Shown here in pieces: positions 21,476 to 38,649 of a stretch of DNA of 64,000 nt (position 1 is the first letter of the stretch; every line of letters begins with the position of its first letter). A program made the position numbers and the translations under genes. A model generated the notes under the pieces. The model had not been told where the DNA came from. It did no database searches and saw only the letters and a program-made list of their open reading frames with translations. Source of the stretch: a virus. Its lineage: Duplodnaviria > Heunggongvirae > Uroviricota > Caudoviricetes. Location of the stretch: IMG/VR virus record IMGVR_UViG_3300031555_004779; one strand, given 5' to 3'.

Positions 21476-21494
21476 CTATATGTTTAACATATAG
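21476..21494. promoter_or_regulatory. IPR19 palindrome CTATATGTTTAACATATAG (copy 1). -35 TTGACA at 21503, -10 TATAAT at 21527.
   Basis: Perfect 9-bp arms around a central W. A terminator-like hairpin lies upstream and a promoter lies 8 bp downstream. Confidence 0.6.
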
Positions 21495-21560
21495 TATTTT
21501 TCTTGACAAACAAACTACAAACATGCTATAATAAACCATACTAACAAGGAGGTACAAACC

Positions 21561-21926
21561 ATGTCTCACCGCACTGTTATCCATGCTTCTTTCTACTTCT
21601 CAGCTGACTTCCTGCTGTATAATGACCATGGCCGTGAATTGTTGGTAGTACATGGTGATGACCTTCCTGTTGATGGCGAAGTTGACGAAGCTACTTTCCG
21701 CGCTCTGTTGAAGGATATTCGTGCCAAGGAAAAAGCGCGCTGTCGTGTAAAGTACACTGAAAAGAAAGTTACAGCCGAACCAAAGTTTGACCCTGCACAC
21801 GATGGCTATACTGTTGGGCGTACTTTCGGTGATGGATTTGGCGATGTACAAAAAGCGCTTCGCAATGTAAATAGCGAAACTTATCCTATGACAAAAAGCG
21901 AATGGGCGTTCTCATACTGGGCATAA
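21561..21926 (+). CDS. early protein, hypothetical
   Basis: Cassette gene: AAGGAGG RBS, TAA stop, hairpin GGGCATAAAAACGCCC. Confidence 0.5.
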   Translation: MSHRTVIHASFYFSADFLLYNDHGRELLVVHGDDLPVDGEVDEATFRALLKDIRAKEKARCRVKYTEKKVTAEPKFDPAHDGYTVGRTFGDGFGDVQKALRNVNSETYPMTKSEWAFSYWA

Positions 21927-21944
21927 AAACGCCCTTTATAAAAA

Positions 21945-21963
21945 CTATATGTCTAACATATAG
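21945..21963. promoter_or_regulatory. IPR19 palindrome variant CTATATGTCTAACATATAG (copy 2)
   Basis: One arm mismatch. Confidence 0.55.
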
Positions 21964-22031
21964 TTTTATCACTTTACAATCAAGCGAAAATGTGTTACAA
22001 TACAATCATCAAAGGAAAGGGGTTGCACATC

Positions 22032-22175
22032 ATGAAGAAAAATTATTGGGTCATTATCAAAAACGGTTTTGTAGGTTGCCGCCACTTTATCACAGAAGAC
22101 GACGCAAACGACGCATGCGAGGCCATGAACATGCTTGACCCCGGTTGGATTGTGCAAGGGATTGTGTGCGGTTAA
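22032..22175 (+). CDS. early small protein (47 aa)
   Basis: The promoter -10 TACAAT lies inside the longer track ORF, so the start was taken at the ATG after AAAGGAAAGGGG. Confidence 0.4.
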   Translation: MKKNYWVIIKNGFVGCRHFITEDDANDACEAMNMLDPGWIVQGIVCG

Positions 22176-22192
22176 TCCGCACACAAGAAAAA

Positions 22193-22211
22193 CTATATGT
22201 CTAACATATAG
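22193..22211. promoter_or_regulatory. IPR19 palindrome variant (copy 3)
   Basis: CTATATGTCTAACATATAG. Confidence 0.55.
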
Positions 22212-22278
22212 TTTTAACGCTTTACAAAAAGAAAAAATCATGATATAATAAACCCATCAAATGAAGGAGGTTTTCACC

Positions 22279-22464
22279 ATGACCACCAAATGTTATTTCC
22301 TTGAAAATTCTGATTCTTGCGTCCGCGTCATTGATTACATCACAAATGTTATCCCTTGTTTTATTCGTGAATTGCTTATTGCCAATGATGGTATTACTCT
22401 CACGATTGAATGCCGCGATTATGACCTTGCTTTTGTAGAACGTACCCTTGCGCCCTATGTATAA
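22279..22464 (+). CDS. early small protein
   Basis: RBS AAGGAGG. Confidence 0.45.
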   Translation: MTTKCYFLENSDSCVRVIDYITNVIPCFIRELLIANDGITLTIECRDYDLAFVERTLAPYV

Positions 22465-22482
22465 TACATAGGGCTTAAAAAA

Positions 22483-22501
22483 CTATATGTTTAACATATA
22501 G
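22483..22501. promoter_or_regulatory. IPR19 palindrome (copy 4)
   Basis: CTATATGTTTAACATATAG. Confidence 0.6.
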
Positions 22502-22568
22502 TTTTACCTATTTACAAAAATGCCAAACTGTGTTATACTTATACCATCAAGAGAGGGAGGTATCCACC

Positions 22569-22760
22569 ATGGGTAAGGTAGTCTATTTCGAGTCTGGCGT
22601 TGTTATGGAGTTTAATAAGGAGTACTCTAACCGTAAGCATGTCCGCGAGACCGTGCGGCTGGAGCAAAGCTGGCACAAGGAACGTTTTGGGCGTGCGCCG
22701 CGTGTACGTTATGCGCGCCCGTGGAAACGTGACGAAGTGAATCCCTATTGGAGATGGTAA
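22569..22760 (+). CDS. early small basic protein
   Basis: RBS GGGAGG. Confidence 0.45.
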   Translation: MGKVVYFESGVVMEFNKEYSNRKHVRETVRLEQSWHKERFGRAPRVRYARPWKRDEVNPYWRW

Positions 22761-22777
22761 CATCTCCATTACAAAAA

Positions 22778-22796
22778 CTATATGTTTAACATATAG
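22778..22796. promoter_or_regulatory. IPR19 palindrome (copy 5)
   Basis: CTATATGTTTAACATATAG. -35 TTTACA lies 8 bp downstream. Confidence 0.6.
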
Positions 22797-22882
22797 AAAT
22801 AAGTATTTACAAAAACGAAAAAATGTGATATTATATACTTGTCCGAAGGGGACAAACAAAAAAATGAAAAGAGGTAAAAAAC

Positions 22883-23158
22883 ATGACTATGAACTTTAAC
22901 GCCAAGGAAGCCAACAAGACCACCAACGCCACCCGTGAAGCCCAGCAGGAACGTGCCCGCAAGTGTGCAGAAATCCACGTTGAACAGATGATTGAACCCA
23001 TGATTAAAGACGCCGCCAATCGTGGCGAAAATAACGTGGATGTTCATTTCCATAATTCCACCGTCGGTCTGTATGGGAACATCAATGTCATTCTTTGTGA
23101 AAACGGTTTTGAAACTTCTTTCAATCGTGAGCGCACTTGCTTGCACATCAAATGGTAA
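22883..23158 (+). CDS. early protein, hypothetical
   Basis: RBS AAGAGGT. Confidence 0.45.
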   Translation: MTMNFNAKEANKTTNATREAQQERARKCAEIHVEQMIEPMIKDAANRGENNVDVHFHNSTVGLYGNINVILCENGFETSFNRERTCLHIKW

Positions 23159-23182: not shown

Positions 23183-23201
23183 CTATATGTTTAACATATA
23201 G
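23183..23201. promoter_or_regulatory. IPR19 palindrome (copy 6)
   Basis: CTATATGTTTAACATATAG. Confidence 0.6.
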
Positions 23202-23285: not shown

Positions 23286-23609
23286 ATGAAAAAGATTTTT
23301 GCCCTGATTCTCTCCATCGCTCTTATTCTGTCCTGTGCCTCTGCCTCTGCTCGTACTGCTTTCGATGCCAACCGCGAAAAAATTCATTTCGTCGTACTTG
23401 ATTATGATGATGAAGCAGACGAAACTTTCACCGCCGTTTGGACTTTCAAAACGGTTATCAGCAAGATTGAGAAGGGCGAAAACTTCTTCGAACTTCTCGC
23501 GATGGAATGCGATGGTTTTATCCCTTGCCGTTGGGAAGTTGATGCAAATGGCAATGGCCACATCTATTCCACATTGGATGACCACGAAATCACACCGGAA
23601 ACTTGGTAA
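23286..23609 (+). CDS. secreted or lipoprotein-like early protein (signal peptide with ILSC lipobox)
   Basis: N-terminus MKKIFALILSIALILSCASA. Confidence 0.5.
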   Translation: MKKIFALILSIALILSCASASARTAFDANREKIHFVVLDYDDEADETFTAVWTFKTVISKIEKGENFFELLAMECDGFIPCRWEVDANGNGHIYSTLDDHEITPETW

Positions 23610-23632: not shown

Positions 23633-23651
23633 CTATATGTTTAACATATAG
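23633..23651. promoter_or_regulatory. IPR19 palindrome (copy 7)
   Basis: CTATATGTTTAACATATAG. Confidence 0.6.
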
Positions 23652-23734: not shown

Positions 23735-23971
23735 ATGAAAATCACTATCACTTCTATGATGCTTTGCGAACTGTGCGGCGGCAAGTTTACCTATGAGGCT
23801 TGCGAGGCTCTGTGCGACTGGTTCGAAGAAACAGCTGACCGCGACTTCGCCCCGGCCATCGGCGACATCTGCGTATCTTACAGCGAGCTGAGAGCTGAGG
23901 ATATTGATGAGGATGATGAAGAAAAAATCATTGCTCATTTGAACAATGGCAACGTACTGATTGCGCTTTAA
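23735..23971 (+). CDS. early small Cys-containing acidic protein
   Basis: RBS GGAGGT. Confidence 0.45.
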   Translation: MKITITSMMLCELCGGKFTYEACEALCDWFEETADRDFAPAIGDICVSYSELRAEDIDEDDEEKIIAHLNNGNVLIAL

Positions 23972-23987: not shown

Positions 23988-24006
23988 CTATATGTTTAAC
24001 ATATAG
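23988..24006. promoter_or_regulatory. IPR19 palindrome (copy 8)
   Basis: CTATATGTTTAACATATAG. Confidence 0.6.
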
Positions 24007-24076: not shown

Positions 24077-24358
24077 ATGATGACCATCAGCACCACCCAC
24101 GAACACGGCTCCAACAAAGTTTACTACCGCGTAGAAACCCGCAAGGACTGGAAAGAAGCCTATCAGCTGATTCGTTACAAAGCGAATGCAAAAACGCTGA
24201 GCTACATCATCCACAATGGCCTCATCTATCACTGCATCCCGTGGGGCGAAGGAATCTATGAACACGCACAGAACGCGCCGCACAACGAAAAGCACAGCCG
24301 TTGGGCAATCGCACAAAGCACGCGCCGGCTTTACATTTACGATAAAATGGGGTTGTGA
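24077..24358 (+). CDS. early protein, hypothetical
   Basis: RBS AAGGAGG. Confidence 0.45.
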   Translation: MMTISTTHEHGSNKVYYRVETRKDWKEAYQLIRYKANAKTLSYIIHNGLIYHCIPWGEGIYEHAQNAPHNEKHSRWAIAQSTRRLYIYDKMGL

Positions 24359-24376: not shown

Positions 24377-24395
24377 CTATATGTTAAACATATAG
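24377..24395. promoter_or_regulatory. IPR19 palindrome (copy 9, central A)
   Basis: CTATATGTTAAACATATAG. Confidence 0.6.
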
Positions 24396-24464: not shown

Positions 24465-24758
24465 ATGACCAACACTATCAACTCCACCACTCTCCGCACC
24501 ATCTACGACAATCTGTCTGCCGAATCTCGTGCCACCATTCTGTTCATCCTTGACATCGAACTTCGTAATAACATCAATGATGAAGAAGTGTTTGAGCGTT
24601 GGCTGCAGTGCGGCGTGCCGGACGGCTGCATGACAGTCAAAAACGTACAGGAATACATGGACACCGAAAACATGACATGGGAAGAATTTGAAGAATATAT
24701 TCTTCTCGCCGCCAGTTGCTTTGAGATGGATAATGAGGAGGAAGAAGAAGATGAATAA
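24465..24758 (+). CDS. early acidic protein
   Basis: The start was taken after RBS GAAAGGGG. The upstream part of the track ORF overlaps the -10 element. Confidence 0.45.
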   Translation: MTNTINSTTLRTIYDNLSAESRATILFILDIELRNNINDEEVFERWLQCGVPDGCMTVKNVQEYMDTENMTWEEFEEYILLAASCFEMDNEEEEEDE

Positions 24759-24897: not shown

Positions 24898-24916
24898 CTA
24901 TATGTTAAACATATAG
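24898..24916. promoter_or_regulatory. IPR19 palindrome (copy 10)
   Basis: CTATATGTTAAACATATAG. Confidence 0.6.
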
Positions 24917-24984: not shown

Positions 24985-25200
24985 ATGATGAATGAGTGTG
25001 AGGTTCGCAACTGTGGTTACTGGTATCAGGACGAGTACGAAGAACGCCCCTCTTGTCACTATAACGACCATCGCTTCCCTGCTCCTTGTGAAGAGGACGA
25101 CAGCTGCGATGATGACTACTGGGACGATTTCGAACCCGACGACATCGACAGCGATGAAGGCTTTGACCCGTATGAAGGTTGCTTTACATTTGACTGTTAA
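24985..25200 (+). CDS. early Cys/Asp-rich small protein
   Basis: RBS GGAGGTG. Confidence 0.45.
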   Translation: MMNECEVRNCGYWYQDEYEERPSCHYNDHRFPAPCEEDDSCDDDYWDDFEPDDIDSDEGFDPYEGCFTFDC

Positions 25201-25224: not shown

Positions 25225-25243
25225 CTATATGTTAAACATATAG
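25225..25243. promoter_or_regulatory. IPR19 palindrome (copy 11)
   Basis: CTATATGTTAAACATATAG. Confidence 0.6.
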
Positions 25244-25252
25244 TTTTCTCTC

Positions 25253-25281
25253 TTGACTTCCTATATAGGGTATGTTATAAT
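25253..25281 (+). promoter_or_regulatory. promoter of the ORF-less cassette
   Basis: TTGACT, 17 nt, TATAAT. Confidence 0.5.
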
Positions 25282-25287
25282 CCTATT

Positions 25288-25460
25288 GTCGAAAGAAAGA
25301 AAGGACGGGTGAGAGCCAATGGGTTAGGCGTACGGCCACTTGATGCTAAGTGGAGCGACGAATACTTGTGCCGCAAGCATCTGCGGGTCACTTCGGGAGC
25401 GGCGACCGAAGCTGGCATATGAGCCGTGCCACCCAGTGTCCGGAAGCTGGGTGATTTTTG
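25288..25460 (+). ncRNA. candidate promoter-driven non-coding RNA (about 170 nt, GC-rich, structured)
   Basis: Full cassette architecture, but no ORF with an RBS. Several 5-6-bp stems. It ends in the hairpin CCCAG..CTGGG followed by TTTTT. Confidence 0.4.
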
Positions 25461-25471
25461 TATGCTGGAAA

Positions 25472-25490
25472 CTATATGTTAAACATATAG
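25472..25490. promoter_or_regulatory. IPR19 palindrome (copy 12)
   Basis: CTATATGTTAAACATATAG. Confidence 0.6.
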
Positions 25491-25557: not shown

Positions 25558-25872
25558 ATGACCATCACCATCAGCAAACTCACATTCTCCAACCACTTCT
25601 GCACTGACCGCCGTGACAGATACGAAACCATTCGGCGCGTAGGCTTCGGCCAAATCGTAAAACAACAATGGTACAACGGTTGCTGGCACTGCCTCACCGA
25701 CATGGGCGTTATGCTGGTAGTTGACGAAGCTGGCAATTATTGTATGACCGCTTACTTTGCAGACTGGGTTGAAGTAAACCGTATCTATCAGGGCAACGTG
25801 CCGCGAGCAATGAAGAAACGCATTGACCGCAATATTTCTTATGGATATACGAAAGCGAGGTATAAGGGATAA
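25558..25872 (+). CDS. early protein, hypothetical
   Basis: RBS AAAGGAGCG. Confidence 0.45.
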   Translation: MTITISKLTFSNHFCTDRRDRYETIRRVGFGQIVKQQWYNGCWHCLTDMGVMLVVDEAGNYCMTAYFADWVEVNRIYQGNVPRAMKKRIDRNISYGYTKARYKG

Positions 25873-26039
25873 TGGATTATGGAAAATTTATAGGCACAAC
25901 AAGCGGCGTATCGGGACTTCGCGCCTTACTTTCCAATTATGAAGGAGCAAATTTACGTTTTGCTTCTAATGATTATGGTGATTCTTGTATGGTAGAAATT
26001 TGGTACGATTCGTCTACCAATACCATCACGCTTGCCTAA
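25872..26039 (+). CDS. small protein (55 aa), translationally coupled through a TAATG overlap
   Basis: Hand translation gives MDYGKFIGTTSGVSGLRALLSNYEGANLRFASNDYGDSCMVEIWYDSSTNTITLA. A hairpin follows. Confidence 0.35.
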   Translation: MDYGKFIGTTSGVSGLRALLSNYEGANLRFASNDYGDSCMVEIWYDSSTNTITLA

Positions 26040-26056: not shown

Positions 26057-26075
26057 CTATATGTTAAACATATAG
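26057..26075. promoter_or_regulatory. IPR19 palindrome (copy 13)
   Basis: CTATATGTTAAACATATAG. Confidence 0.6.
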
Positions 26076-26172
26076 TTTTCTTTTGAATTTGTTGTTGACT
26101 TCTTCCCAATATGTGATATAATAAGATTGTCCAAAGGGACAAGAAATAAAAAACAGAAAGAGGTTATCAACT

Positions 26173-26598
26173 ATGGCAAAACTCAGCAAGCAGGTTAAGG
26201 ATTACATGTGGAGCAAGGTTCGTGAACGCATGGATGCGGTGCTCGCCCCGCTGAATGAACAGGTGAAAGCTGAAGAAGAGCACATCAGTGAAGTTCTGAC
26301 CACAGCAAAGGAAAAAGCCAATGAACTGTTTCAGTCCATTCTGAAAGCTGAATTCCCTGAACAGTGGAAGGAACTGGAAGAGAAGTGCACCAGCGATTAC
26401 TACACCCGTCTGCCCCGTGCTACTACCAGTGATACCCACATGATTCATTCCCTTGCTCGCCCCGAGCGCGACAAGAAGAAGAAAGAAATGGAAGAATATG
26501 CCAACAAGTTCATGAATGAACTGTTCATGGATGTTGAACTCGGCGCTGTCAAGAAAGATGAAATTCTGAACGCGCTTTCCAAGTTGGAGTTGGGCTAA
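26173..26598 (+). CDS. early protein, hypothetical (coiled-coil)
   Basis: RBS AAAGAGGT. Confidence 0.5.
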   Translation: MAKLSKQVKDYMWSKVRERMDAVLAPLNEQVKAEEEHISEVLTTAKEKANELFQSILKAEFPEQWKELEEKCTSDYYTRLPRATTSDTHMIHSLARPERDKKKKEMEEYANKFMNELFMDVELGAVKKDEILNALSKLELG

Positions 26599-26623: not shown

Positions 26624-26642
26624 CTATATGTTAAACATATAG
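26624..26642. promoter_or_regulatory. IPR19 palindrome (copy 14)
   Basis: CTATATGTTAAACATATAG. Confidence 0.6.
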
Positions 26643-26727: not shown

Positions 26728-27321
26728 ATGTATTTCAAGACTTACAAGCCCGCCACCCTCGCTGACAACTCCGCTCGTGCCCGTGCCGCTCACATCCTCA
26801 ACGCCGTTGCTCGCCACACCAATGTGTTTGACCCTTCCTTTGAAGATTACGCAGATTATATCTACGAAAAGAAGTTGACTTTCCGCGACCGCGCCCTCAT
26901 CATCGGCGAAGAAGAACGCTGGCTGGAAGAGCTGAAAGTTGAATGGGACAACCTCATGGAGCTTGTCAAAGAATCCAAGAAGCCCACTTGCGCCACCAAG
27001 GGTCATTTCGCTTATTTCCTCATTTTCAATGATGGTTTTGTGAAGAACGGCGAAACCAACAATATTGCTTCTCGCTATTCTCAGTTGAGCAGTGAGCACG
27101 ATGGTATCAATCACATGTGGTACATTGAACTCAACAACGAAGAAGAGCGCAAACTCGCTCAGCATGCCGTTCACAATGTGTTTGACCATTCCCGCGCCAT
27201 GAATCGCGCCATGGGCAAACAGGATTATTATCAGAGCGAACTTGAAACCGCGAATCGTTTCATGACTACCCATAAGGGACAAATCTGGCGCGCTATCATG
27301 GACGCAATCGGGGAGGAGTAA
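26728..27321 (+). CDS. early protein, hypothetical (197 aa)
   Basis: RBS AAGAAGGT. The hairpin GGGGAGGAGTAATCCTCCCC follows. Confidence 0.5.
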   Translation: MYFKTYKPATLADNSARARAAHILNAVARHTNVFDPSFEDYADYIYEKKLTFRDRALIIGEEERWLEELKVEWDNLMELVKESKKPTCATKGHFAYFLIFNDGFVKNGETNNIASRYSQLSSEHDGINHMWYIELNNEEERKLAQHAVHNVFDHSRAMNRAMGKQDYYQSELETANRFMTTHKGQIWRAIMDAIGEE

Positions 27322-27337
27322 TCCTCCCCTTATAAAA

Positions 27338-27356
27338 CTATATGTTAAACATATAG
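27338..27356. promoter_or_regulatory. IPR19 palindrome (copy 15)
   Basis: CTATATGTTAAACATATAG. Confidence 0.6.
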
Positions 27357-27422: not shown

Positions 27423-27554
27423 ATGAACCGTTACGAAGTCTTTGAACACATCACTAACAAACACATCTGCGTACTGCTTGCCACCAACTATGCCGAAGCA
27501 TGGAGTATCGCAGAATCTCACGGATGGTATCCCAATAATTATTATATTGTGTAA
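27423..27554 (+). CDS. small protein (43 aa)
   Basis: RBS AAAGGAGGT. Confidence 0.4.
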   Translation: MNRYEVFEHITNKHICVLLATNYAEAWSIAESHGWYPNNYYIV

Positions 27555-27567: not shown

Positions 27568-27978
27568 ATGGAAGAACTTATTGGCTTAAGCGTTATCCTT
27601 GGTATATTTGTTGTGGCTGGCCTTATCGGCTGGGGCGCGAGCGCTTTGTATAATATTTACTGGAAATATCGTGTCAAAAAGAACCGCATCAATCATCCTA
27701 AACTGATTGAACTTCAAAAAGAACGCGAAAAAATGTGCGAAGAATACAATCAATGGTGGGATGAAAGACATGAAGCAAAAAAGCGTATTGACAAATACAT
27801 GGAAGAAATCAAATACCATGAAGAAGATGTAACCAAAAGTTTTTTGGAAGCAATCAAACAAGAACAGCAAATTTATTCCAACGCCGACAAACACATGAAA
27901 GAACTTTCTCCCTTGGTTGATGCCGCACGTGAAGCAGAGCAAACATACCGCGAAGAACATAACATCCGCCACTGGTAA
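27568..27978 (+). CDS. membrane-anchored coiled-coil protein
   Basis: N-terminal transmembrane helix LSVILGIFVVAGLIGWGASALY, then a charged helical region. Confidence 0.45.
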   Translation: MEELIGLSVILGIFVVAGLIGWGASALYNIYWKYRVKKNRINHPKLIELQKEREKMCEEYNQWWDERHEAKKRIDKYMEEIKYHEEDVTKSFLEAIKQEQQIYSNADKHMKELSPLVDAAREAEQTYREEHNIRHW

Positions 27979-28000: not shown

Positions 28001-28019
28001 CTATATGTTTAACATATAG
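28001..28019. promoter_or_regulatory. IPR19 palindrome (copy 16)
   Basis: CTATATGTTTAACATATAG. Confidence 0.6.
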
Positions 28020-28090: not shown

Positions 28091-28276
28091 ATGACGAACT
28101 TTGAACGCGAAGAAAACCGAATCACTTTTGAATCTCAGAACGCACAGCGCTATGCTATGGCGCAGGTTGAGTGTGGTGCTTGGGATGCTGACTATGCGGA
28201 AGCATGGCTGTCCAATCGTCTTCAGCATCTGCAAGCTGAATGGAATGAACTGCATGACGAGCTGAAAGGAGAATAA
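28091..28276 (+). CDS. early small protein
   Basis: RBS AAGGAAGGAAACC. Confidence 0.45.
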   Translation: MTNFEREENRITFESQNAQRYAMAQVECGAWDADYAEAWLSNRLQHLQAEWNELHDELKGE

Positions 28277-28278
28277 GT

Positions 28279-31446: not shown

Positions 31447-31529
31447 AAACAACTATTGACTTCATAAAATAACAATGATATAATATTATCGTTCCCAAGA
31501 GAGAGGAACAGAAAGGAAGGTATCCCCAA

Positions 31530-32525
31530 ATGTTCGCAGTCGTTATTGGTATTCTCCTCATCATCGCCGCTATTGCTATTCCCTTTATTACTAATGGTAT
31601 GGGCTATAAGGGTGGCGGTATTGGCTCTGTTATCTGTCTGATTCTCGCCGCGGTTATCATTACCCTGTCCTGTATCTCCACCGTTCCCACTGGCCACACT
31701 GGTATTCTCACTACGTTCGGCCGTGTTGAGGACAAGAATCTTCCCGAAGGTATGAACTTCCATGCTCCGTGGCAGAGTATTACTACCATGACCAATAAGG
31801 AACAGACCAGCACCGAAACCAATATGTGTTTCTCCGCTGACTTGCAGGAAGTTGCCTATACTTACACTACGAAGCATAGTCTGCTTGCTTCTGCCGCGCC
31901 TAACATTTATAAGACCGTAGGTACTGACTATTACAATATCCTCATTGTGCCGCAGGTCAACAACGCCATCAAGGCAGAGTTTGGTTTGGTTGAAGCAGAA
32001 AATATGACTGAACTGCGTACCCAGCTTCAGAAGAACATCAATGACAAGGTACAGACTTTTGCTGATAAGTATGGTATCAACGTTACCGTTGTAATTGATG
32101 ACTTTGACTTCTCCGATGCTTATACCAATGCCATTGAAGCCAAGCAGGTAGCCGAACAGGAAGCCCTGCGCGATAAGACCCAGCAGCAGATGGAAACCGA
32201 GCGCGCTCGTCAGCAGGCAGAACGCACGAAGATTCAGGCCGAAAACGATGCCGCTATTCGTGAAATCAATGCCAACGCCGATGCGGAAGCCGCGCGAATT
32301 AAGGCACAGGCCGATTTTGAAGTCGCCCAGCTTGAAGCCGATGCCATTGCTTACAAGGGCGAAAAGGAAGCCGAAGCAACTGCCGCTCTTGCCGCCGCTA
32401 TTACCGATGAAGTTGTCGCGTATGAATATGCGCAGAACTGGTCTGGTGAACTTCCCCAGTATATGATGGGCGGTACTGGCGCTCTGCCTATCATTGATAT
32501 TCCCATGAATACGGAAGAGGAGTAA
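31530..32525 (+). CDS. SPFH/band-7 (stomatin/HflC-like) membrane protein
   Basis: Two N-terminal transmembrane segments. SPFH core start TGHTGILTTFGRVED..PEGMNFHAPW. Long AEAxA coiled-coil tail. Confidence 0.6.
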   Translation: MFAVVIGILLIIAAIAIPFITNGMGYKGGGIGSVICLILAAVIITLSCISTVPTGHTGILTTFGRVEDKNLPEGMNFHAPWQSITTMTNKEQTSTETNMCFSADLQEVAYTYTTKHSLLASAAPNIYKTVGTDYYNILIVPQVNNAIKAEFGLVEAENMTELRTQLQKNINDKVQTFADKYGINVTVVIDDFDFSDAYTNAIEAKQVAEQEALRDKTQQQMETERARQQAERTKIQAENDAAIREINANADAEAARIKAQADFEVAQLEADAIAYKGEKEAEATAALAAAITDEVVAYEYAQNWSGELPQYMMGGTGALPIIDIPMNTEEE

Positions 32526-32549
32526 TCCTCTTCCTTTTTTAATTTCATT

Positions 32550-32568
32550 CTATATGTTAAACATATAG
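32550..32568. promoter_or_regulatory. IPR19 palindrome (copy 22)
   Basis: CTATATGTTAAACATATAG. Confidence 0.6.
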
Positions 32569-32664: not shown

Positions 32665-33285
32665 ATGGAAAACAAATATGTATGGAGAAACGAAGAACTC
32701 AACAACCAGCTCACCGCTATCGCTTATGCCAAGAATGAAAATGATATGGCGAAGGCTATTCGTGAATGCTTGAAGAACATCGCTATTGAATGGTGGAAAG
32801 ACCTTTCCGAAGAAACCAAGCAGGCCATCCGTTTGGTTGACTTCAATCATGCTGTTATCTGCTCTCTGATGTTCTTCAGCCCCGAAAGCGTTATGTGCGA
32901 CTATTATCCCATTCGCGCCGCTCTGGATGATATGGTGGAAGCTCATGCCGCTCTCATCACTGGTGAATACCCCTATGGCGGCGTGCCCATCATGCCCCAC
33001 GATGTAAACAATCGTAAGTATTTCTGGGGCACAAGCGAAAACGCCATTCAGGCTACCTATTATCTTAACAAGTGCAAGAAGCAGTTAACCGAAGAAGTGC
33101 AGAATGTCGCTCGCATGTATGGTATTGAAGATGCCAAGGCCATTGTTGAAACTGCTATCGAGCATTCTTCTGTAGTCAACAACCACAAGAAGAACAAGGC
33201 AAAGTATGTATCTGAACTCCGCAAGGAATATCTGCACGAAGTATTTGCTATGCTCAGGCAATATGATGCTTTGAGGGGTGAGTAA
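32665..33285 (+). CDS. early protein, hypothetical (206 aa)
   Basis: RBS AAGAAGGT. The hairpin GGTGAGTAATCACC follows. Confidence 0.5.
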   Translation: MENKYVWRNEELNNQLTAIAYAKNENDMAKAIRECLKNIAIEWWKDLSEETKQAIRLVDFNHAVICSLMFFSPESVMCDYYPIRAALDDMVEAHAALITGEYPYGGVPIMPHDVNNRKYFWGTSENAIQATYYLNKCKKQLTEEVQNVARMYGIEDAKAIVETAIEHSSVVNNHKKNKAKYVSELRKEYLHEVFAMLRQYDALRGE

Positions 33286-33303: not shown

Positions 33304-33322
33304 CTATATGTTAAACATATAG
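33304..33322. promoter_or_regulatory. IPR19 palindrome (copy 23)
   Basis: CTATATGTTAAACATATAG. Confidence 0.6.
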
Positions 33323-33419: not shown

Positions 33420-33863
33420 ATGGCTAACTACTTCTCCGAACGCAATGAACTGGAAAACAAGATTCGTGACCTCGCTATTGCTCTCGACAGTCTTCGCAGA
33501 ACCAAGGATGATGCTCGTCAGAACTATCTCGCTGAACTCGCCCACCTCATCAAATCTCGTCCCGGCCTGACCGCTTCGCAGTATGCTATGCTTATGAGCA
33601 ACGATGCTTGCGAACGTAACAGCATTCAGATGAGCATCAGCAACATGGGGTACATGGCAGAAGCCTGTGAAAAGAATCTCCGCTCCTATCCCTATTACGG
33701 TGATACTTCCCATGTGGTATGTTCCAATCCTTCCATGCCGTCTTTGAAGCGTAAGCAGACCACAGTCAAGCGCCGTTTCATTGAGGTTGACGAAAACAAT
33801 CAGCCTATCGGCACCCATGAAACCACTGAATACCGTACCGTTTACAGCATCAAGGAGGACTAA
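33420..33863 (+). CDS. early protein, hypothetical
   Basis: RBS AAGAAGGT. Confidence 0.5.
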   Translation: MANYFSERNELENKIRDLAIALDSLRRTKDDARQNYLAELAHLIKSRPGLTASQYAMLMSNDACERNSIQMSISNMGYMAEACEKNLRSYPYYGDTSHVVCSNPSMPSLKRKQTTVKRRFIEVDENNQPIGTHETTEYRTVYSIKED

Positions 33864-33867: not shown

Positions 33868-34128
33868 ATGAAGAAGATTTTCGCTCTTGTCCTCGCCCTG
33901 ATTCTCGTTTTCGCCGTTGCTTCTCCCGCCCTCGCCAACGTTGGTTGGTTTGACTTCAACTATGACTTCCAGTATGTCATCATCAATTTCGGCTCCCGTA
34001 CCATTGAAGGTACATGCGAAAAATGGTGGGATTATGAAGATAGCGACGTTGTACAGGTACAGATTGACGGCGTTATCTATCTGACCCATTATGAAAATGT
34101 TCTGTTGTGTAGCAAGAAACTGTGGTAA
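33868..34128 (+). CDS. small secreted protein with signal peptide
   Basis: RBS AAGGAGG. N-terminus MKKIFALVLALILVFAVASPALA. Confidence 0.45.
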   Translation: MKKIFALVLALILVFAVASPALANVGWFDFNYDFQYVIINFGSRTIEGTCEKWWDYEDSDVVQVQIDGVIYLTHYENVLLCSKKLW

Positions 34129-34154: not shown

Positions 34155-34173
34155 CTATATGTTAAACATATAG
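34155..34173. promoter_or_regulatory. IPR19 palindrome (copy 24)
   Basis: CTATATGTTAAACATATAG. Confidence 0.6.
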
Positions 34174-34189
34174 AATTAAAAGAGTGGAA

Positions 34190-34603
34190 TTACTTCCACT
34201 CAATTTCATCGCAACGCATCTTATTAAAGTTGTGGTCTAACACAAGGTCAGCCATACCATGCAACATACAAGAAACAGTTTTCACTCCCTTTGGCACATA
34301 GAGAATAATTTCTTTTCTTTTTGCAGAAGCATAACCCACTTCAAATGCCGTGCCCGCGTCAGCATTGAAACCCCAATCAATAGCAATCACAAGGTCAGCG
34401 CGTTCAAGCATTTTAATATCATGATGACAAACTTTCGCGCCCCAATTCCAGTTGGGAAGATTATCGCCGTCAGGAACTTTATAATATCGGGGAATGAAGA
34501 TTTCCCAATCATCATATCTGCGCGCGATTTCATCAATGATTCTACTATATTCTTTTTCCTGTTCGGGAGTAAACCAAGGGCCAGCCAAATAAAGCAACTT
34601 CAT
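34190..34603 (-). CDS. nucleoside 2-deoxyribosyltransferase-like (DNPH1/Rcl-like) protein, in an inverted cassette
   Basis: Motifs LYLAGPWFTPEQ and GTAFEVGYA. The minus-strand promoter (TTGACA, 17 nt, TATACT) and RBS AAGGAAGG are read from the palindrome at 34668-34686. The start was set at MKLLYLAG. Confidence 0.5.
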   Translation of the reverse strand: MKLLYLAGPWFTPEQEKEYSRIIDEIARRYDDWEIFIPRYYKVPDGDNLPNWNWGAKVCHHDIKMLERADLVIAIDWGFNADAGTAFEVGYASAKRKEIILYVPKGVKTVSCMLHGMADLVLDHNFNKMRCDEIEWK

Positions 34604-34667
34604 GATATAGCACCTTCCTTTCGTGATATAGTATATCATGTTTAGTGTTGCTTGTCAACAAGAAAAA

Positions 34668-34686
34668 CTATATGTTAAACATATAG
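34668..34686. promoter_or_regulatory. IPR19 palindrome (copy 25), serving the minus-strand cassette
   Basis: CTATATGTTAAACATATAG. Confidence 0.6.
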
Positions 34687-34695
34687 AAACAAGCG

Positions 34696-35459: not shown

Positions 35460-35478
35460 CTATATGTTAAACATATAG
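35460..35478. promoter_or_regulatory. IPR19 palindrome (copy 26)
   Basis: CTATATGTTAAACATATAG. Confidence 0.6.
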
Positions 35479-35584: not shown

Positions 35585-36346
35585 ATGGAAACCATTCTCG
35601 TATTTGACACCGAAACCACAAGCATTGACAAACCTTTTGCCTATGATGTGGGCTATAAGATTCTGACCCGAAATTTTGAAACGCTCGAATCCAAGCACTT
35701 TGTGATTGAACAGATTTGGCATAATCTCCCTCTGTTTGAATCTACTTATTACAAAGATAAGCGCCCTTTGTACGTTCTCGCCATGCGTAAGCATGAAGCC
35801 ATCATGACCAAGTGGGGATACATGGTTGCTAAAATGCTCCGCGACATTAAGAAATATAATGTTGTAGCCGCTTATGCTTTCAATAGCACTTTCGATGACC
35901 GTGTTTTTCTTCACAACTGCGAATGGTTCAAAACTCGCAACCCCTTTGATACCATTCCCATCTATGATATTTGGGGCTATTCCTCCCAGTTTATCACGAA
36001 TACGCAAGCATACCGCGATTTTGCCGAAGCAAACCAATGCTTCACCGAATCCGGCAACATCAGCGGAAACGCCGAAAACCTTTACCGCTTCATGACCGCC
36101 GACCCCGATTTTGAAGAAGCGCACCAAGGCTTGCAAGACGTGGAAATTGAAGCCGAAATTTTACGCGAGTGCATCAAGCGTGGTGCAGAGTGGGACACCG
36201 AATATAAAGTGGTACAAAAGATTCCGCGTGAAATTGAACACCCTTACGCAATCAAGGTGAATGGAAAAGTTATCCATGAAGGCAAGTACACCAAAAAGTA
36301 TGTACGCAAGGATGTATATTCCTTCACGGAAGAAATGGTGGAGTAA
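35585..36346 (+). CDS. DEDDh-family 3'-5' exonuclease (DnaQ/RNase T-like)
   Basis: Exo I motif LVFDTETTS at the N-terminus. An H-x4-D Exo III motif (AHQGLQDVEIE) near residue 180. Confidence 0.55.
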   Translation: METILVFDTETTSIDKPFAYDVGYKILTRNFETLESKHFVIEQIWHNLPLFESTYYKDKRPLYVLAMRKHEAIMTKWGYMVAKMLRDIKKYNVVAAYAFNSTFDDRVFLHNCEWFKTRNPFDTIPIYDIWGYSSQFITNTQAYRDFAEANQCFTESGNISGNAENLYRFMTADPDFEEAHQGLQDVEIEAEILRECIKRGAEWDTEYKVVQKIPREIEHPYAIKVNGKVIHEGKYTKKYVRKDVYSFTEEMVE

Positions 36347-36373
36347 TCCACCATTTCTTCCATCACAACAAAA

Positions 36374-36392
36374 CTATATGTTAAACATATAG
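36374..36392. promoter_or_regulatory. IPR19 palindrome (copy 27)
   Basis: CTATATGTTAAACATATAG. Confidence 0.6.
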
Positions 36393-36462: not shown

Positions 36463-36696
36463 ATGACCGAACACGTCCACCCTTACATTGATGATGAACA
36501 CGATATCACCTGTCCTTACTGTGGCTCTCCGCTGTACAACTGGCGCGAAGAAACAGGGGATGTGGAATGGGAAGAACTACACAACGGACGTTTCACCTAT
36601 AAGGAAACGTGTGAACAGTGCAACCGTCGTGTAACGTATCATTTGAACTTCACCATAACTTGTGCCGTAGTTGAAGAAGAAAGGTTAGATAGGTAA
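36463..36696 (+). CDS. Zn-ribbon small protein (CPYCG..CEQCN)
   Basis: RBS AAAGGAAGATG. Confidence 0.45.
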   Translation: MTEHVHPYIDDEHDITCPYCGSPLYNWREETGDVEWEELHNGRFTYKETCEQCNRRVTYHLNFTITCAVVEEERLDR

Positions 36697-36881
36697 TGGT
36701 AACATATCTCGCCCTTGCTAATCTCGTAGTTAGCACATTCAGTACCGTATGGTTTAGCCGCGACACCGATATTTACACTGTAACAGATGTTATCATGACT
36801 ATGCTGTGCTGTGTACTTCCTATCATTCCCCTTTGCTATCTCTACCGTTGGTGTAACAAGTTTGTGAGAGGAGAAATCTAA
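36696..36881 (+). CDS. small membrane protein
   Basis: ATGA overlap with the upstream gene. Two hydrophobic helices. Confidence 0.4.
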   Translation: MVTYLALANLVVSTFSTVWFSRDTDIYTVTDVIMTMLCCVLPIIPLCYLYRWCNKFVRGEI

Positions 36882-36883
36882 CT

Positions 36884-37321
36884 ATGGAAGTTAAGACTAT
36901 CTATATTGCCAATGATGGCACGGAGTTTGAAGATAAGGAAGAATGCCTTACCTATGAATCTTCTTTGACATCTGAATGCGATTTTGTCCAACTGTATGAC
37001 AATGATGGCAAACTCATTGATTGGAATCCCGATGATTATGATGGTATGTGGGATCATCTCTATTACATCGTCATTGAACCGCACCGCGAAGAAGAAGCAG
37101 AAGAATGGTGGGCCAATTCCTTTGGCGTTATGCTTGGTGTTAATCCGTTCAGTGAAATGGATAACGACTGGAAAGCATGGAAACACCATTATCATGGTGA
37201 CGAACCGACCGTTCTTGCTTTTGACTTCGGAGGAAATGACAGTTGGATTATTTTCAATGAAGTCTATGACGAAGTAAAAGGCATTGTTCGCGGCCTTGAC
37301 CTTGTGGATGCTCTCGGTTGA
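36884..37321 (+). CDS. acidic early protein, hypothetical
   Basis: ORF track entry. A hairpin follows. Confidence 0.45.
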   Translation: MEVKTIYIANDGTEFEDKEECLTYESSLTSECDFVQLYDNDGKLIDWNPDDYDGMWDHLYYIVIEPHREEEAEEWWANSFGVMLGVNPFSEMDNDWKAWKHHYHGDEPTVLAFDFGGNDSWIIFNEVYDEVKGIVRGLDLVDALG

Positions 37322-37336
37322 GAGCATTCCAATAAA

Positions 37337-37355
37337 ACTATATGTTAAACATATA
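37337..37355. promoter_or_regulatory. IPR19 palindrome (copy 28)
   Basis: CTATATGTTAAACATATAG. Confidence 0.6.
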
Positions 37356-37368
37356 GAAATATCACCCG

Positions 37369-37386
37369 CTTGTTAAAAACTTAACA
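37369..37386. promoter_or_regulatory. second palindromic motif, copy 4 (TTGTTAAAAACTTAACAA)
   Basis: Identical to copy 2. Confidence 0.5.
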
Positions 37387-37475
37387 AAGAAAATACTTGA
37401 CCAATCACCAAAAGTGTGATACAATAAATACGTCCTCAAGAGAGGAACACTAAATAAGAAAGAGGTATCCCAATT

Positions 37476-38006
37476 ATGAAGAACGAACTTCGCGCCGAAG
37501 CCCTGTCCGCAGTCCTGCCCAAGGTAATGGAAATGTTCCCCGATGCCGTCAATGTCTGCGTTTCCAACAAGAACATGCTTGCCGTTGATACTGGCAAGGT
37601 TGATGACAATGGTAAACCCATCTACGCCACCATTGATATTACCATCAAGGACAACGAAGCCACCAAGACCCGCGAAGGCTTTGACCTGATGACCGCCGTC
37701 AACGCCTACAACGAAAAGGCTTCCAAGGCTACCGAGCGTAAGTCCAAGACCCCTTCCGCGCCCAAGAACACCGAAGCCGCCGAGCGCAAGAACAAGCGTA
37801 TGACCGCCCTGCGCGAGTGGTGGACGAATGAAGCCGTTTCCGGCGAGGGCTACACCAGCACCATGATCAAGACCGAGCTTGCCGATGTGTATAGCGAACT
37901 GACCATTATGCAGGTTGGCTCTGACCTCAAGACCCTGTCTGAAATCATTCCCACCGAGTGCGAGATGCGCGTGGTCGAGGGCAAGAAGCACTACTTCAAG
38001 GCGTAA
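37476..38006 (+). CDS. paralog family member B
   Basis: RBS AAGAGGT. Ends in VEGKKHYFKA. A classic terminator hairpin GCTCCCCGAAAGGGGAGC plus a T-run follows. Confidence 0.5.
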   Translation: MKNELRAEALSAVLPKVMEMFPDAVNVCVSNKNMLAVDTGKVDDNGKPIYATIDITIKDNEATKTREGFDLMTAVNAYNEKASKATERKSKTPSAPKNTEAAERKNKRMTALREWWTNEAVSGEGYTSTMIKTELADVYSELTIMQVGSDLKTLSEIIPTECEMRVVEGKKHYFKA

Positions 38007-38012
38007 GTCAGC

Positions 38013-38038
38013 GCTCCCCGAAAGGGGAGCATTTTTTG
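38013..38038 (+). terminator. rho-independent terminator
   Basis: GCTCCCC-GAAA-GGGGAGC followed by ATTTTTTG. Confidence 0.6.
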
Positions 38039-38047
38039 TTTGGAAAA

Positions 38048-38066
38048 CTATATGTTAAACATATAG
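38048..38066. promoter_or_regulatory. IPR19 palindrome (copy 29)
   Basis: CTATATGTTAAACATATAG. Confidence 0.6.
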
Positions 38067-38082
38067 AATAAAAAAGGAACGC

Positions 38083-38562
38083 TTAACGTTCCTTCGGTGG
38101 AGCATATTTATTGTATTTTTCTCTTTGCTCACCATATCCCACAGTACCAAGCATACTATAGTTATCGCGCAGATAGAAAATCATACCTTCTAAGATATCT
38201 TTCGTGCGCTCACGTTCATGACGAATTGCTTCTGCCTTGATTGCGTTATTGCCTAACTTCAAGATGCGGTCTGCCTGCTCAGTAACAGTTGCTTCAACGG
38301 CATTCTCTTCATATTTGCTAATGACTTCATCCATAGGATATTCATCAAAGCCAATATACCAAAAACCTTCTCTGCTCTTGTCGGCATTCTGCACATAGCT
38401 TTCATACTGAGAAAACTTCTTCATAGTCAAGCGTTCCCAACAACGAATTGCTTCTGCTCTGTCATCAGTAACAAACAAAGTTTTCCAGTAATACCAGCCA
38501 TGCTCAACGATTTCATAAATTGTTTTCTTAGAACAGAACTCCATAAACATCTTCTTATCCAT
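38083..38562 (-). CDS. hypothetical protein (159 aa) in an inverted cassette
   Basis: The minus-strand promoter (TTGACG, 17 nt, TATAAT) and RBS AAAGGGGTG are read from the palindrome at 38631-38649. Confidence 0.45.
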   Translation of the reverse strand: MDKKMFMEFCSKKTIYEIVEHGWYYWKTLFVTDDRAEAIRCWERLTMKKFSQYESYVQNADKSREGFWYIGFDEYPMDEVISKYEENAVEATVTEQADRILKLGNNAIKAEAIRHERERTKDILEGMIFYLRDNYSMLGTVGYGEQREKYNKYAPPKER

Positions 38563-38630
38563 GTGTTACACCCCTTTCTTGATTGCTTCTATATTATAAC
38601 ATTTGTTTTTTATTCCGTCAAGTACTAAAA

Positions 38631-38649
38631 CTATATGTTAAACATATAG
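38631..38649. promoter_or_regulatory. IPR19 palindrome (copy 30), serving the minus-strand cassette
   Basis: CTATATGTTAAACATATAG. Confidence 0.6.

Follow-up and report, generated by a model that had tools for sequence, protein, structure and literature searches.

A 19-bp palindrome at early-gene boundaries, alike in layout but different in sequence among related phages, points to an undescribed type-specific signal for control and recombination

The DNA analysed here, referred to as the window, is a stretch of 64,000 nucleotides from a tailed phage (Caudoviricetes; IMG/VR record IMGVR_UViG_3300031555_004779). The portal protein and structural genes are encoded at its left on the minus strand, and tail-fibre-like genes at its right. 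The region of interest, at 21476-38649, is a TAG-poor early region in which 30 copies of a 19-bp palindrome bound 29 gene cassettes, 27 in forward orientation and two inverted. Most of the cassette products had no Pfam or PHROG assignment; those assigned were an AbrB/SpoVT protein, a Band7/SPFH protein, a nucleoside 2-deoxyribosyltransferase, a HAD-like hydrolase, a DEDD-type exonuclease, and a zinc-ribbon protein. By the portal protein, the nearest isolates were large siphoviruses of Bacillus and Lactococcus, with 26-28% identity. Related phages had the same layout with a different palindrome at their junctions. This points to a signal, specific to the type and not yet described, for control and recombination of the whole set of early genes.

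The exact element, CTATATGTTWAACATATAG, was present in 28 copies in the 64-kb window, against 0 expected from 100 dinucleotide-preserving shuffles. Allowing up to three mismatches added only two copies, the GTCTAAC variants at 21945 and 22193, and no copy with two to four mismatches and no isolated half-site was found anywhere in the window. All 30 palindromes lay within 21476-38649, at intervals of 247-1122 bp that contained promoters and genes. An earlier note on this DNA had listed 30 copies, and both the number (28 perfect and two with one mismatch, against none by chance) and 29 of the 30 coordinates were borne out, but the remaining one, 37337, should read 37338. The 9-bp arms described there gave way in the family comparison to two inverted 7-bp arms around a 5-bp centre (7+5+7), and the 7-bp arms were perfect in 30/30 window copies. 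The two GTCTAAC copies were found as stated, but their change, T9>C, which had been taken for an arm mismatch, falls in the variable centre and leaves the arms intact. Conservation in the flanks of the 19 bp was weak and consisted of AAA on the promoter-distal side.

The central base swapped between complementary bases, A and T in the window and G and C in L033 and L068 (related loci are given L numbers). In the window the centre bases were clustered (6 runs against 15.7 expected, z=-3.7), and between the window and L074 the centre was flipped at 6 of 26 orthologous copies with the 14 arm positions unchanged. Variants in one arm were equally common in both arms (6 G4>A and 7 C16>T). The elements of L087 were heterotypic in 9 of 10 cases and stood in both orientations upstream of promoters of the same direction, with a 9-nt gap to the promoter kept. 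The centre flips, the L087 orientations, and the arm-balanced variants would fit a twofold-symmetric reader of double-stranded DNA, and they would also fit frequent exchange between copies in either alignment; they argue against a strand-specific RNA signal. The rare T9>C variant was seen at no junction beyond the first three, in three phages that include one with other outer arm bases, so individual copies are also inherited in place.

The palindrome was rejected as an intrinsic terminator, since its stem is A/T-rich and TTTT directly follows only 9 of the 30 copies; the terminator-like structures are the separate GC stems upstream. These GC hairpins differed in sequence from one another while the palindrome beside them was invariant and its gap to the -35 box was fixed or changed in helical-turn steps, which supports the proposal of the earlier note that the element is a protein site rather than a terminator. 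A CRISPR array, with repeats of 23-47 bp and non-coding spacers of similar length, was rejected on the length and the gene content of the intervals, and an N4-type hairpin promoter, a parS site, a restriction site, and an RNase III site were rejected on anatomy. An Rfam search of the whole window returned three tRNAs only.

The boundaries followed one order, namely a GC-rich hairpin, an A-rich run, the palindrome, a short A/T spacer, a promoter, a GGAGG-type ribosome-binding site, and an open reading frame (ORF). The promoters consisted of TTGACA-like and TGnTATAAT-like boxes 16-18 nt apart, and a hairpin, an AT-rich stretch, and a promoter of the typical form TTGACA-17-TGnTATAAT were present at 28 of the 30 boundaries. 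The layout of hairpin, palindrome, promoter, GGAGG, and ORF that had been proposed was confirmed by the printed flanks and a promoter scoring script; the feature coordinates given below rest on this scoring of the flanks and on exact and mismatch motif searches. The further claim that every copy lies between a hairpin and a promoter held for 28 of 30 copies, but those at 34155 and 38048 have hairpins on both sides. The copy at 34668 feeds two divergent promoters, and that at 38631 feeds a reverse-strand promoter only. The upstream GC hairpins themselves were present, but a U-tract followed only about one third of them and an A-run followed most. Both inverted cassettes were confirmed to use the dyad in the opposite sense. 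The gap from the palindrome to the -35 box was 9 nt (8 in two cases) at 22 of the 29 window promoters, against the ~8 bp suggested earlier, and it was 19-20 nt at four copies (26057, 28735, 32550, and 33304) and 40 nt at three (29306, 35460, and 37338). Assuming a 17-nt promoter spacer and a start about 7 nt past the -10 box, the 9-nt gap places the dyad centre at about -54, which bears out the earlier value of about -55.

A consensus scan of 21-39 kb found 89 promoter-like sites against 36.6 +/- 6.3 in shuffles, and nearly all of the matches at 10-12 of 12 consensus positions were promoters beside palindromes. Three strong promoters in the array, at 28469, 30520, and 34815, had no palindrome. 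Across the family, a strong promoter lay within 120 nt of 493 of the 633 copies that were far enough from locus ends, a sample in which some loci are near-duplicates, so that part of the copies are non-independent. Of these 493 copies, 384 had 8-10 nt between palindrome and -35 box, with 285 distinct spacer sequences, and the remaining gaps clustered at 19, 31-32, 41, and 51 nt. After the 83 distinct long spacers had been collapsed into 13 similarity clusters, a Rayleigh test on the clusters gave a peak at 10.5-10.75 bp (R=0.86-0.88, p ~5e-5 to 7e-5), and the mean phase of the long spacers was within 10-13 degrees of the 9-nt class. The long spacers were made up of phased A/T tracts, of small palindromes of other kinds, or of further copies of the element in tandem, repeating every 21 bp, as at L040 3115-3195, where four tandem elements stand upstream of one promoter. 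With the distance from hairpin to palindrome variable in the window (4-17 nt) and the gap to the -35 box helically phased, the place of the element is set by the promoter and lies on a single helical face. Operators of dimeric regulators are expected to be inverted repeats that keep a constant distance from the promoter elements, and the palindrome has this property.

The motif search that the earlier note had suggested was run, and it recovered arrays in metagenome contigs, but it drew a blank in IMG/VR, where the exact 19-mer had no match, and only chance-level matches in genomes. The exact 19-mer gave six single matches in 185,579 genomes where about 17 are expected for 18 fixed bases in 596 Gb, so that no host regulon carries it. 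The metagenome contigs with arrays of the exact motif were 75-87% identical to the window in coding parts and held 40 perfect and 3 one-mismatch copies, with no copies beyond one mismatch. A near-DNA search of isolated phages returned tRNA matches only, and no isolate shared the array DNA. Distant relatives were reached by searches with the array proteins Band7, exonuclease, g29431, and g38926, and the family amounted to more than 40 related metagenomic loci, including contigs of 100-180 kb. Most of these more distant relatives contained 10-40 copies per 20 kb in the same layout with a different 19-bp sequence.

Each genome had one arm type, which was CTATATG (the window, L074, and L086), TTATATG (L071 and L084), TTAGATG (many loci), TTAGGTG (L045 and L049), TTAGACG (with a fully variable centre), or TTATCYG, seen as the asymmetric TTATCCG..CAGATAA in L087 and L078. 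A search for this asymmetric type in IMG/VR gave no match. Arm positions T2, A3, and G7 were invariant across all types, and neighbouring types were one mirrored substitution apart. Among 755 family copies the arms were perfect in 714, with one mismatch in 36 and two in 5, and some of the one-mismatch copies were hybrids of two arm types. Two copies in L071, at 11747 and 12480, had the hybrid arms TTAGATG..CATATAA and TCATATG..CATCTAA and flanked the cassette of a second AbrB-like gene. Among the nearest isolates, no comparable repeat was found in the exonuclease regions of Phass-1 and Enterococcus EF1. All but one of the IMG/VR contigs found through Band7 (L024-L032 and L034) shared that gene only, and they are thus uninformative on the absence of the palindrome.

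The element was replaced as a block between relatives that were nearly identical around it. With flank identity measured 8-45 nt outward from the element, the comparison of L074 with the window (same type, CTATATG; 27 junctions) gave 93.9% for the flanks, 100% for the arms, and 93% for the centre. The contig L085 (ena:ERZ27303126:k141_645536) carries TTAGATGTAATACATCTAA, of type TTAGATG, and its cassette proteins are 80-98% identical to those of the window; at 12 junctions its flanks were 93.5% identical, its arms 71% (four fixed differences), and its centre 52%. For L087, of type TTATCYG, the values at 5 junctions were 94.7%, 63%, and 88%, respectively. At junction 28001, aligned in six phages, an identical hairpin, spacer, and promoter surrounded three different elements. 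Positions -6 to -1 and +1 beside the L085 element had diverged too, and the swapped block, which comprises the L085 element and about 4-6 nt on its left, was about 23-26 bp long and was replaced at every comparable junction. Such a swap at every junction, with each genome kept uniform, requires a trans-acting factor whose specificity differs between close relatives, a conversion process targeted to the element, or both.

Insertions, deletions, replacements, and inversions of whole cassettes between relatives ended at palindromes. L074, in which neighbouring cassettes were 70-97% identical to those of the window, was missing cassettes 6, 14, and 25 and had three extra ones. Cassettes 2 and 3 were in swapped order in L071, the HAD-like cassette was missing from L021, one extra cassette was found in L023, and unrelated cassettes occupied two positions in L007. 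The array of L008 ran two cassettes beyond 38631, and L015 had an extra palindrome and promoter inside the three-gene unit of palindrome 27. The nucleoside 2-deoxyribosyltransferase cassette (34174-34667) was inverted in the window, L015, and L074 and forward in L018, L013, and L073; this inversion turns over everything between two palindromes, with its breakpoints at the palindromes, and several inverted cassettes of the same geometry were seen in L033. A chimeric promoter region in L017 indicates that some exchanges took place in the spacer or promoter, outside the element.

The AbrB/SpoVT-like protein encoded at 30982-31410 had been proposed as the ligand of the palindrome. It consists of a PF04014 N-terminal domain (E=7e-11), which matched the N-domains of SpoVT and AbrB (E=2e-12 to 1e-9) and is nearly identical to host-type SpoVT/AbrB, and an unknown C-terminal domain, and the gene was found in 4/4 relatives that cover its part of the array. 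Its DNA-contact arginines were mostly common to phages of different palindrome type. One contact position was RR in CTATATG and TTATATG phages and RQ or RK in TTAGATG phages (R24 to Q/K in two phages), in a sample of five sequences confounded by phylogeny. The proteins of L074, of the same type, and L087, of another type, were 67% and 65% identical to that of the window, and homologues were also found in the palindrome-free loci L054 and L060. The proposal was not supported, since identity and contact residues do not follow palindrome type. The SpoVT/AbrB family binds degenerate sites, and the phage protein may have host regulons as its targets instead.

A second candidate, the small Cro/CI-type HTH_3 protein just right of the array (39715-39870), was rejected as the binder because its recognition helix GIGRTTYYEWKNGK is identical in the CTATATG-type L074 and the TTATCCG-type L078, a comparison for which most other contigs were too short to be paired with a palindrome type. 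The HTH_3 gene, at 39685-39870, has an in-frame TAG at about codon 11, where the L074 orthologue has Glu and a normal ATG start, and TAG suppression may be needed for its translation. Among array-resident proteins of unassigned function the most widespread was g29431, for which a fold search gave no informative match and no relative was found among isolated phages. The window ORFs that were scanned gave no match to an integrase or other recombinase or to a HUH-transposase, and none to the RAYT (HUH Y1) gene of repetitive extragenic palindromic systems in the same scan, which left out TAG-recoded ORFs. The binding factor may be encoded outside the sampled segments.

We give a probability of roughly one half to the reading that the 19-bp element is an operator, recognised by a symmetric DNA-binding factor that is type-specific and probably encoded by the phage. 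The factor would work together with RNA polymerase at about 29 early promoters, and the element would double as the crossover point for the shuffling of cassettes. A twofold-symmetric, sequence-specific protein would bind the element, and because the specificity of the site differs between related phages this protein would most likely be encoded by the phage. Its site would lie on a fixed helix face upstream of promoters of the host sigma-A type, with the centre near -54 or one to four helical turns further, and the bound factor would contact RNA polymerase. Since the helix face is fixed at each promoter, one factor could act at about 29 promoters together, and it is plausible that one factor switches the whole early programme. 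The promoters are already near consensus and have an extended -10, so that timed shut-off or the exclusion of same-type superinfection would be likelier effects than activation, with phi29 p4, which over-stabilises polymerase at a strong promoter, as the precedent and the sign being inferred only. Rapid divergence of site specificity among close relatives is the pattern of immunity and exclusion systems, for example the Cluster A stoperators (PMC6550527). As the element stands at every gene boundary and is the same on both strands, it would also be the point at which cassettes are gained, lost, replaced, and inverted.

Several results weigh against the operator reading. No array protein, including the AbrB-like protein, and no nearby HTH_3 tracked the palindrome type in the sampled segments. 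Two perfect window copies and 140 of the 633 family copies had no strong promoter within 120 nt, and the orphan copy at 34155 has stayed perfect where the cassette is only 70% identical in relatives; the maintenance of such orphans suggests a role beyond promoter control. The discrete spacing classes are in part inserted modules (phased A-tracts and other small palindromes), and concerted gene conversion, rather than purifying selection alone, could account for the sameness of the copies in one genome. The clean swap of 23-26 bp at 12/12 comparable junctions is hard to obtain by selection and ordinary recombination and fits better with an active process targeted to the element.

The clean block swap, the frequent centre flips, and the maintained orphans keep a recombinase or nuclease, or a roadblock, seriously in play, possibly as the same protein. 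If the element were mainly the site of a dedicated type-specific recombinase or nuclease that inverts, excises, and captures cassettes and could cut non-cognate elements in a homing-like manner, its proximity to promoters would be secondary. This would account for the exact bounding of cassette inversion, gain, loss, and replacement by elements, for the orphans that flank inverted cassettes as a crossover within the dyad predicts, for centre flips (6/26, with unchanged arms) far above the expectation from point mutation, for the heterotypic L087 elements in both orientations, for the hybrid-arm copies, and for the clean replacement of the block at all comparable junctions of near-identical relatives. 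We nevertheless consider it doubtful, as it leaves the 9-nt gap and the helical phasing over 285 spacer sequences unexplained, no enzyme of this kind was matched in the scanned ORFs of the window, the chimeric region of L017 reflects an exchange outside the element, and a centre of 1-5 bp is short against the 6-8 bp overlap region of tyrosine recombinases. A wider possibility, likewise doubtful, is that the palindromes are the cis sites of a phage-borne, type-specific cassette system, in which the specificity of a DNA-binding enzyme or regulator would serve as a changeable 'address code', combining control of about 30 early promoters, the inversion, capture, and loss of cassettes, and the overwriting or exclusion of relatives with another code in mixed infection; the overwriting would explain the replacement of 23-26 bp at every junction. 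The roadblock would be stoperator-like, with a bound protein that stops read-through polymerase and shields each promoter as an insulator. Such help could be needed where upstream hairpins have no U-tract, and some two thirds of the hairpins have an A-run in its place; the element also stands between hairpin and promoter at boundaries, and orphan copies are kept between convergent genes. A precedent is given by the repressors of Cluster A mycobacteriophages, which end elongation at many stoperators (PMC9283540). As the principal function this is unlikely, because a roadblock needs no fixed phase to the -35 box and the phasing is strong, because the distance from the hairpin is variable (4-17 nt), and because stoperators are asymmetric and oriented with transcription while the palindrome is symmetric and orientation-free. 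It could, however, coexist with the operator function through one protein.

The identity and the level of action of the reader leave three further alternatives. The array encodes a protein with a true AbrB-type domain for DNA binding, the four relatives with sequence for this part all have it, one contact position varies with type in the five confounded sequences, and in L071 a second gene copy is flanked by hybrid-arm palindromes, but we judge the AbrB/SpoVT-like protein an unlikely binder of the palindrome, given its near-identity to proteins with degenerate sites, the similar identity of same-type and different-type homologues, and its occurrence in palindrome-free loci. A host protein, such as a global regulator of Bacillota, with arm types that reflect different hosts, is improbable too. 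The promoters are of the host sigma-A type, no phage-encoded binder was found in the sampled segments, and host Spo0A sites in phi29 early promoters are a precedent; yet the arm type differs between phages with 80-98% identity of cassette proteins and about 94% identity of flanks, for which diverged host regulators are unlikely, and the 19-mer had only chance-level single matches in genomes. It is highly improbable that the element acts as RNA, by forming a hairpin with a 7-bp stem and a 5-nt loop in read-through transcripts for processing, stability, or a second termination step. The arms co-vary with pairing kept, the centre is fully variable like a loop in the TTAGACG lineage, the palindrome forms the same stem from either transcribed strand, and TTTT follows some of the copies. 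An RNA structure would not explain why all copies in a genome share one sequence, which the structural hairpins next to them do not, or why the -35 phase is fixed, which is a property of the DNA; the near-equal numbers of G4>A and C16>T variants reveal no strand bias from G-U pairs, the stem is A/T-rich, and no Rfam family was matched.

No description of this architecture was found in the literature searched. Searches of papers for the exact motif strings returned only unrelated primers and similar sequences, and neither promoters nor palindromes are mentioned in the paper on phAss-1, a related phage that is also TAG-recoded. The promoter-early stem-loop (PeSL) of T4-like phages joins a terminator-like stem-loop, an AT-rich stretch, and a strong host-sigma promoter between small genes (Arbiol et al. 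2010, PMC2839356; Comeau et al. 2014, PMC4122927). Like the array, it is a composite motif repeated between small genes mostly of unassigned function, and insertions, deletions, and replacements between close relatives end in the motifs, for which modular shuffling was proposed. Mini-circles of cassettes, arising when flanking motifs recombine, are a further trait of the PeSL class. In PeSLs the conserved part is the promoter and a GGGG...CCCC stem, with no separate invariant palindrome described, whereas the array has an additional 19-bp 7-5-7 element that is fixed in helical phase, uniform in the genome, and swapped as a block. Inversions are common in the array, and it belongs to an unrelated lineage of TAG-recoded siphovirus-like phages with probable Bacillota hosts. 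PeSLs, which lie in the hyperplastic regions of T4-like myoviruses, were thus taken as an analogue only, the isolates nearest by portal protein being Bacillus and Lactococcus siphoviruses.

The 17-bp repeat of Cluster O mycobacteriophages, TGTTCGG-NNN-CCGAACA (Cresawn et al. 2015, PMC4351075), resembles the palindrome in its invariant 7-bp arms, its variable A/T-rich centre, an orientation free of transcription, and more than 30 copies per genome, recombination between which explains indels. Its authors suggested a site for a dimeric protein and considered transcriptional control unlikely (PMC4351075). It differs in having a 3-bp rather than a 5-bp centre and an unrelated sequence; many copies are intragenic and most do not lie near promoters, and neither type variation nor block swapping was reported. 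The stoperators of Cluster A phages, read by L5 gp71-type repressors, are also short intergenic sites in dozens of copies, and they are bound by one phage protein, as the operator reading would have it for the palindrome; their sequence diverges between related phages and, with the specificity of the repressor, defines immunity groups (PMC9283540, PMC6550527). They are, however, asymmetric sites of 13-14 bp, oriented with transcription, bound by a monomer, and serving the lysogeny of temperate phages, whereas the palindrome is symmetric, orientation-free, phase-locked to the -35 box, and confined to the early-gene array. The palindrome was not classed as a stoperator, because the centre variants and the asymmetric variants occur in both orientations at promoters of the same direction.

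An integron array, in which promoterless cassettes of one orientation share a promoter beside an attI site and an IntI integrase gene, was rejected, since no integrase was matched in the scanned ORFs and every cassette has its own promoter, with two cassettes inverted. An attC site is an imperfect palindrome of 57-141 bp conserved in structure, while the element has 19 bp and is invariant in sequence; its central GTTWAAC resembles the GTTRRRY core of attC by inspection only. For an upstream site beside consensus promoters, the mechanistic model is protein p4 of phi29. Work by Monsalve, Rojo, Salas, and co-workers reportedly placed its inverted-repeat sites upstream of early and late sigma-A promoters, where contact with polymerase on a fixed face is said to activate a weak promoter and to repress a strong one by over-stabilisation. 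phi29 differs in its few sites, with another sequence and spacing, and has no cassette array, type swapping, or recombination role.

The cassettes are described here from left to right. Palindrome 1 (21476-21494, centre T) is 8 nt from TTGACA-18-TGcTATAAT and precedes a gene at 21561-21926. The GTCTAAC copies are palindrome 2 (21945-21963; 9 nt to TTTACA-17-TACAAT; gene 22023-22175) and palindrome 3 (22193-22211; 9 nt; gene 22279-22464), the latter with its centre kept at the orthologous L071 junction. A 9-nt gap to the promoter follows in palindromes 4 (22483-22501; gene 22569-22760), 5 (22778-22796; gene 22883-23158), 6 (23183-23201; gene 23286-23609, a cassette not in L074), 7 (23633-23651; gene 23735-23971), 8 (23988-24006; gene 24077-24358), 9 (24377-24395; gene 24465-24758), 10 (24898-24916; gene 24985-25200), 11 (25225-25243), and 12 (25472-25490; genes 25558-25872 and 25872-26039). 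The cassette of palindrome 11 has no ORF and encodes a structured noncoding RNA of about 185 nt (25284-25471). This cassette (25244-25471) has a palindrome-linked promoter and a U-tract terminator, two helices of the RNA show compensatory changes in comparison with L007 and L023, and no Rfam family was found for it even at E up to 1.

Palindrome 13 (26057-26075) is 19 nt, one helical turn more, from TTGACT-16-TGaTATAAT and precedes a gene at 26173-26598. The gap is 9 nt at palindromes 14 (26624-26642; gene 26728-27321, a cassette not in L074) and 15 (27338-27356; genes 27423-27554 and 27568-27978) and 8 nt at palindrome 16 (28001-28019; gene 28091-28437), where near-identically flanked relatives carry TTAGATG or TTATCCG. 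Palindrome 17 (28735-28753) is 20 nt from the promoter of the HAD-like gene (28834-29289), a cassette not in L021, and palindrome 18 (29306-29324), with a 40-nt gap that contains a second palindrome, precedes genes at 29431-29832 and 29854-30084. Palindrome 19 (30101-30119; 9 nt) is followed by a gene at 30195-30401 and by tRNA-Met, tRNA-Leu, and tRNA-Lys. A consensus promoter without a palindrome, TTGACA-17-TGnTACAAT, lies between tRNA-Met and tRNA-Leu (30520-30548), so that tRNA-Leu and tRNA-Lys may have their own unregulated promoter. Palindrome 20 (30878-30896; 9 nt) comes directly after tRNA-Lys and precedes the AbrB/SpoVT-like gene (30982-31410, plus strand), and palindrome 21 (31428-31446; 9 nt) precedes the Band7/SPFH gene (31530-32525). 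The Band7/SPFH gene is 82-85% identical to the genes of L024-L032 and L034, against 73% in the true relative L033, and as it is closer to unrelated phages than to true relatives, horizontal transfer is probable. The phages of L024-L032 and L034 carry a different repeated leader motif, ACAATACAAAATGAATG.

Gaps of 19 nt occur at palindromes 22 (32550-32568; gene 32665-33285) and 23 (33304-33322; TTGACT-16-TGaTATAAT; genes 33420-33863 and 33868-34128). Palindrome 24 (34155-34173) is an orphan without a promoter between convergent terminator hairpins and forms the left edge of the first inverted cassette (34174-34667, minus strand), with the nucleoside 2-deoxyribosyltransferase gene at 34190-34603. 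Palindrome 25 (34668-34686) has divergent promoters at 9 nt each, TTGACA-17-TATACT on the minus strand and TTGACT-16-TATAAT on the plus strand. Palindrome 26 (35460-35478), with 40 nt and the second palindrome in the gap, precedes the DEDD-type exonuclease gene (35585-36346); palindrome 27 (36374-36392; 9 nt) precedes three genes in 36463-37321, and palindrome 28 (37338-37356), again with 40 nt and the second palindrome, precedes a gene at 37476-38006. Palindrome 29 (38048-38066) is the other orphan, without a promoter and between convergent terminators, and the second inverted cassette (38067-38630, minus strand; gene 38083-38562) extends to palindrome 30 (38631-38649), which is 9 nt from the minus-strand promoter TTGACG-17-TGtTATAAT and ends the array.

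The second palindrome, TTGTTAA-N4-TTAACAA, is unrelated to the first and was found at 29338-29355 and at 28431, 35492, 37370, and 39500, five copies against 0.08 expected. It fills the gap between main palindrome and promoter at three cassettes, adjoins two promoters that have no main palindrome, and is kept in relatives with another main palindrome (L071, L073, L085, and L087); it is probably a second operator. Just past the array end, upstream of a promoter with 12/12 consensus positions at 38810, 4-8 copies of the iteron AGCTGGAA (reverse complement TTCCAGCT) were found. They lie at 38745-38797 and 39713 in the window, at about 6900-7100 in L077, where they adjoin a 400-bp A/T-rich repeat region, and at about 640-760 in L078, and they look like a replication origin or the site of a further regulator.

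At 22 of 26 cassettes, the ORF before the boundary has its stop codon in or at the loop of the boundary hairpin, often a GUAA tetraloop that contains UAA (for example 27313-27330, 32513-32534, and 36340-36362), and the last 3-4 codons thus make the 5' arm of the stem. In many cassettes the 5' leader has a small hairpin, GTCC-AAAGG-GGAC or GTTCC..GGAAC in form, that starts a few nucleotides past the -10 box (for example 26126-26142, 22848-22862, and 31496-31515); these hairpins could be mRNA-stabilising 5'-terminal stem-loops or a common protein-binding site.

Outside the array, the phage uses TAG as a sense codon (code-15-like), at 1-19500 on the minus strand and 43290-60487 on the plus strand. 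The portal ORF (13884-15452) has 1 in-frame TAG and 522 codons when it is read through, the large-terminase ORF (15453-17252) has 6 in-frame TAGs that are spanned by the terminase profile match, and six 'ORFs' of the same frame at 46544-53533 merge into one of 2,329 codons with 7 TAGs. The genes of the array have no in-frame or terminal TAG, and the density of TAG was 5.4/kb in the array against 12-17/kb elsewhere, about one third. No suppressor tRNA was found in the window. With no need of TAG and a low TAG density, the array is a code-neutral early compartment of a recoded phage, which fits the published view that recoding delays the translation of late genes (bioRxiv 10.1101/2021.08.26.457843). 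A sigma-factor-like gene at 18171-19496 on the minus strand (phrog_5767, E=1e-20), with a zinc-ribbon/HNH-like C-terminal tail and 3 in-frame TAGs, is divergent from the early region and has a consensus promoter without a palindrome (19606-19578). It may encode a late-switch factor whose translation awaits TAG suppression.

If one type-specific factor reads the element, about 30 host-takeover genes would be under a single compact master switch. The element is borne by a widespread group of uncultivated phages, known from gut and rumen-type metagenomes, which also switch the genetic code during infection. The block-wise swap between near-identical relatives is unusual, an operator 'specificity code' that evolves in concert at dozens of sites, and it makes the co-evolution of operator and regulator, heteroimmunity-like exclusion in lytic phages, and modular shuffling testable. 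In phage contigs from metagenomes, the element serves as a marker of early promoters and of the borders of cassettes, and its arm types offer orthogonal operator variants for synthetic biology in Bacillota. If the palindromes were the sites of a cassette system of the phage, they would represent an integron-like and immunity-like mechanism in virulent, TAG-recoded phages.

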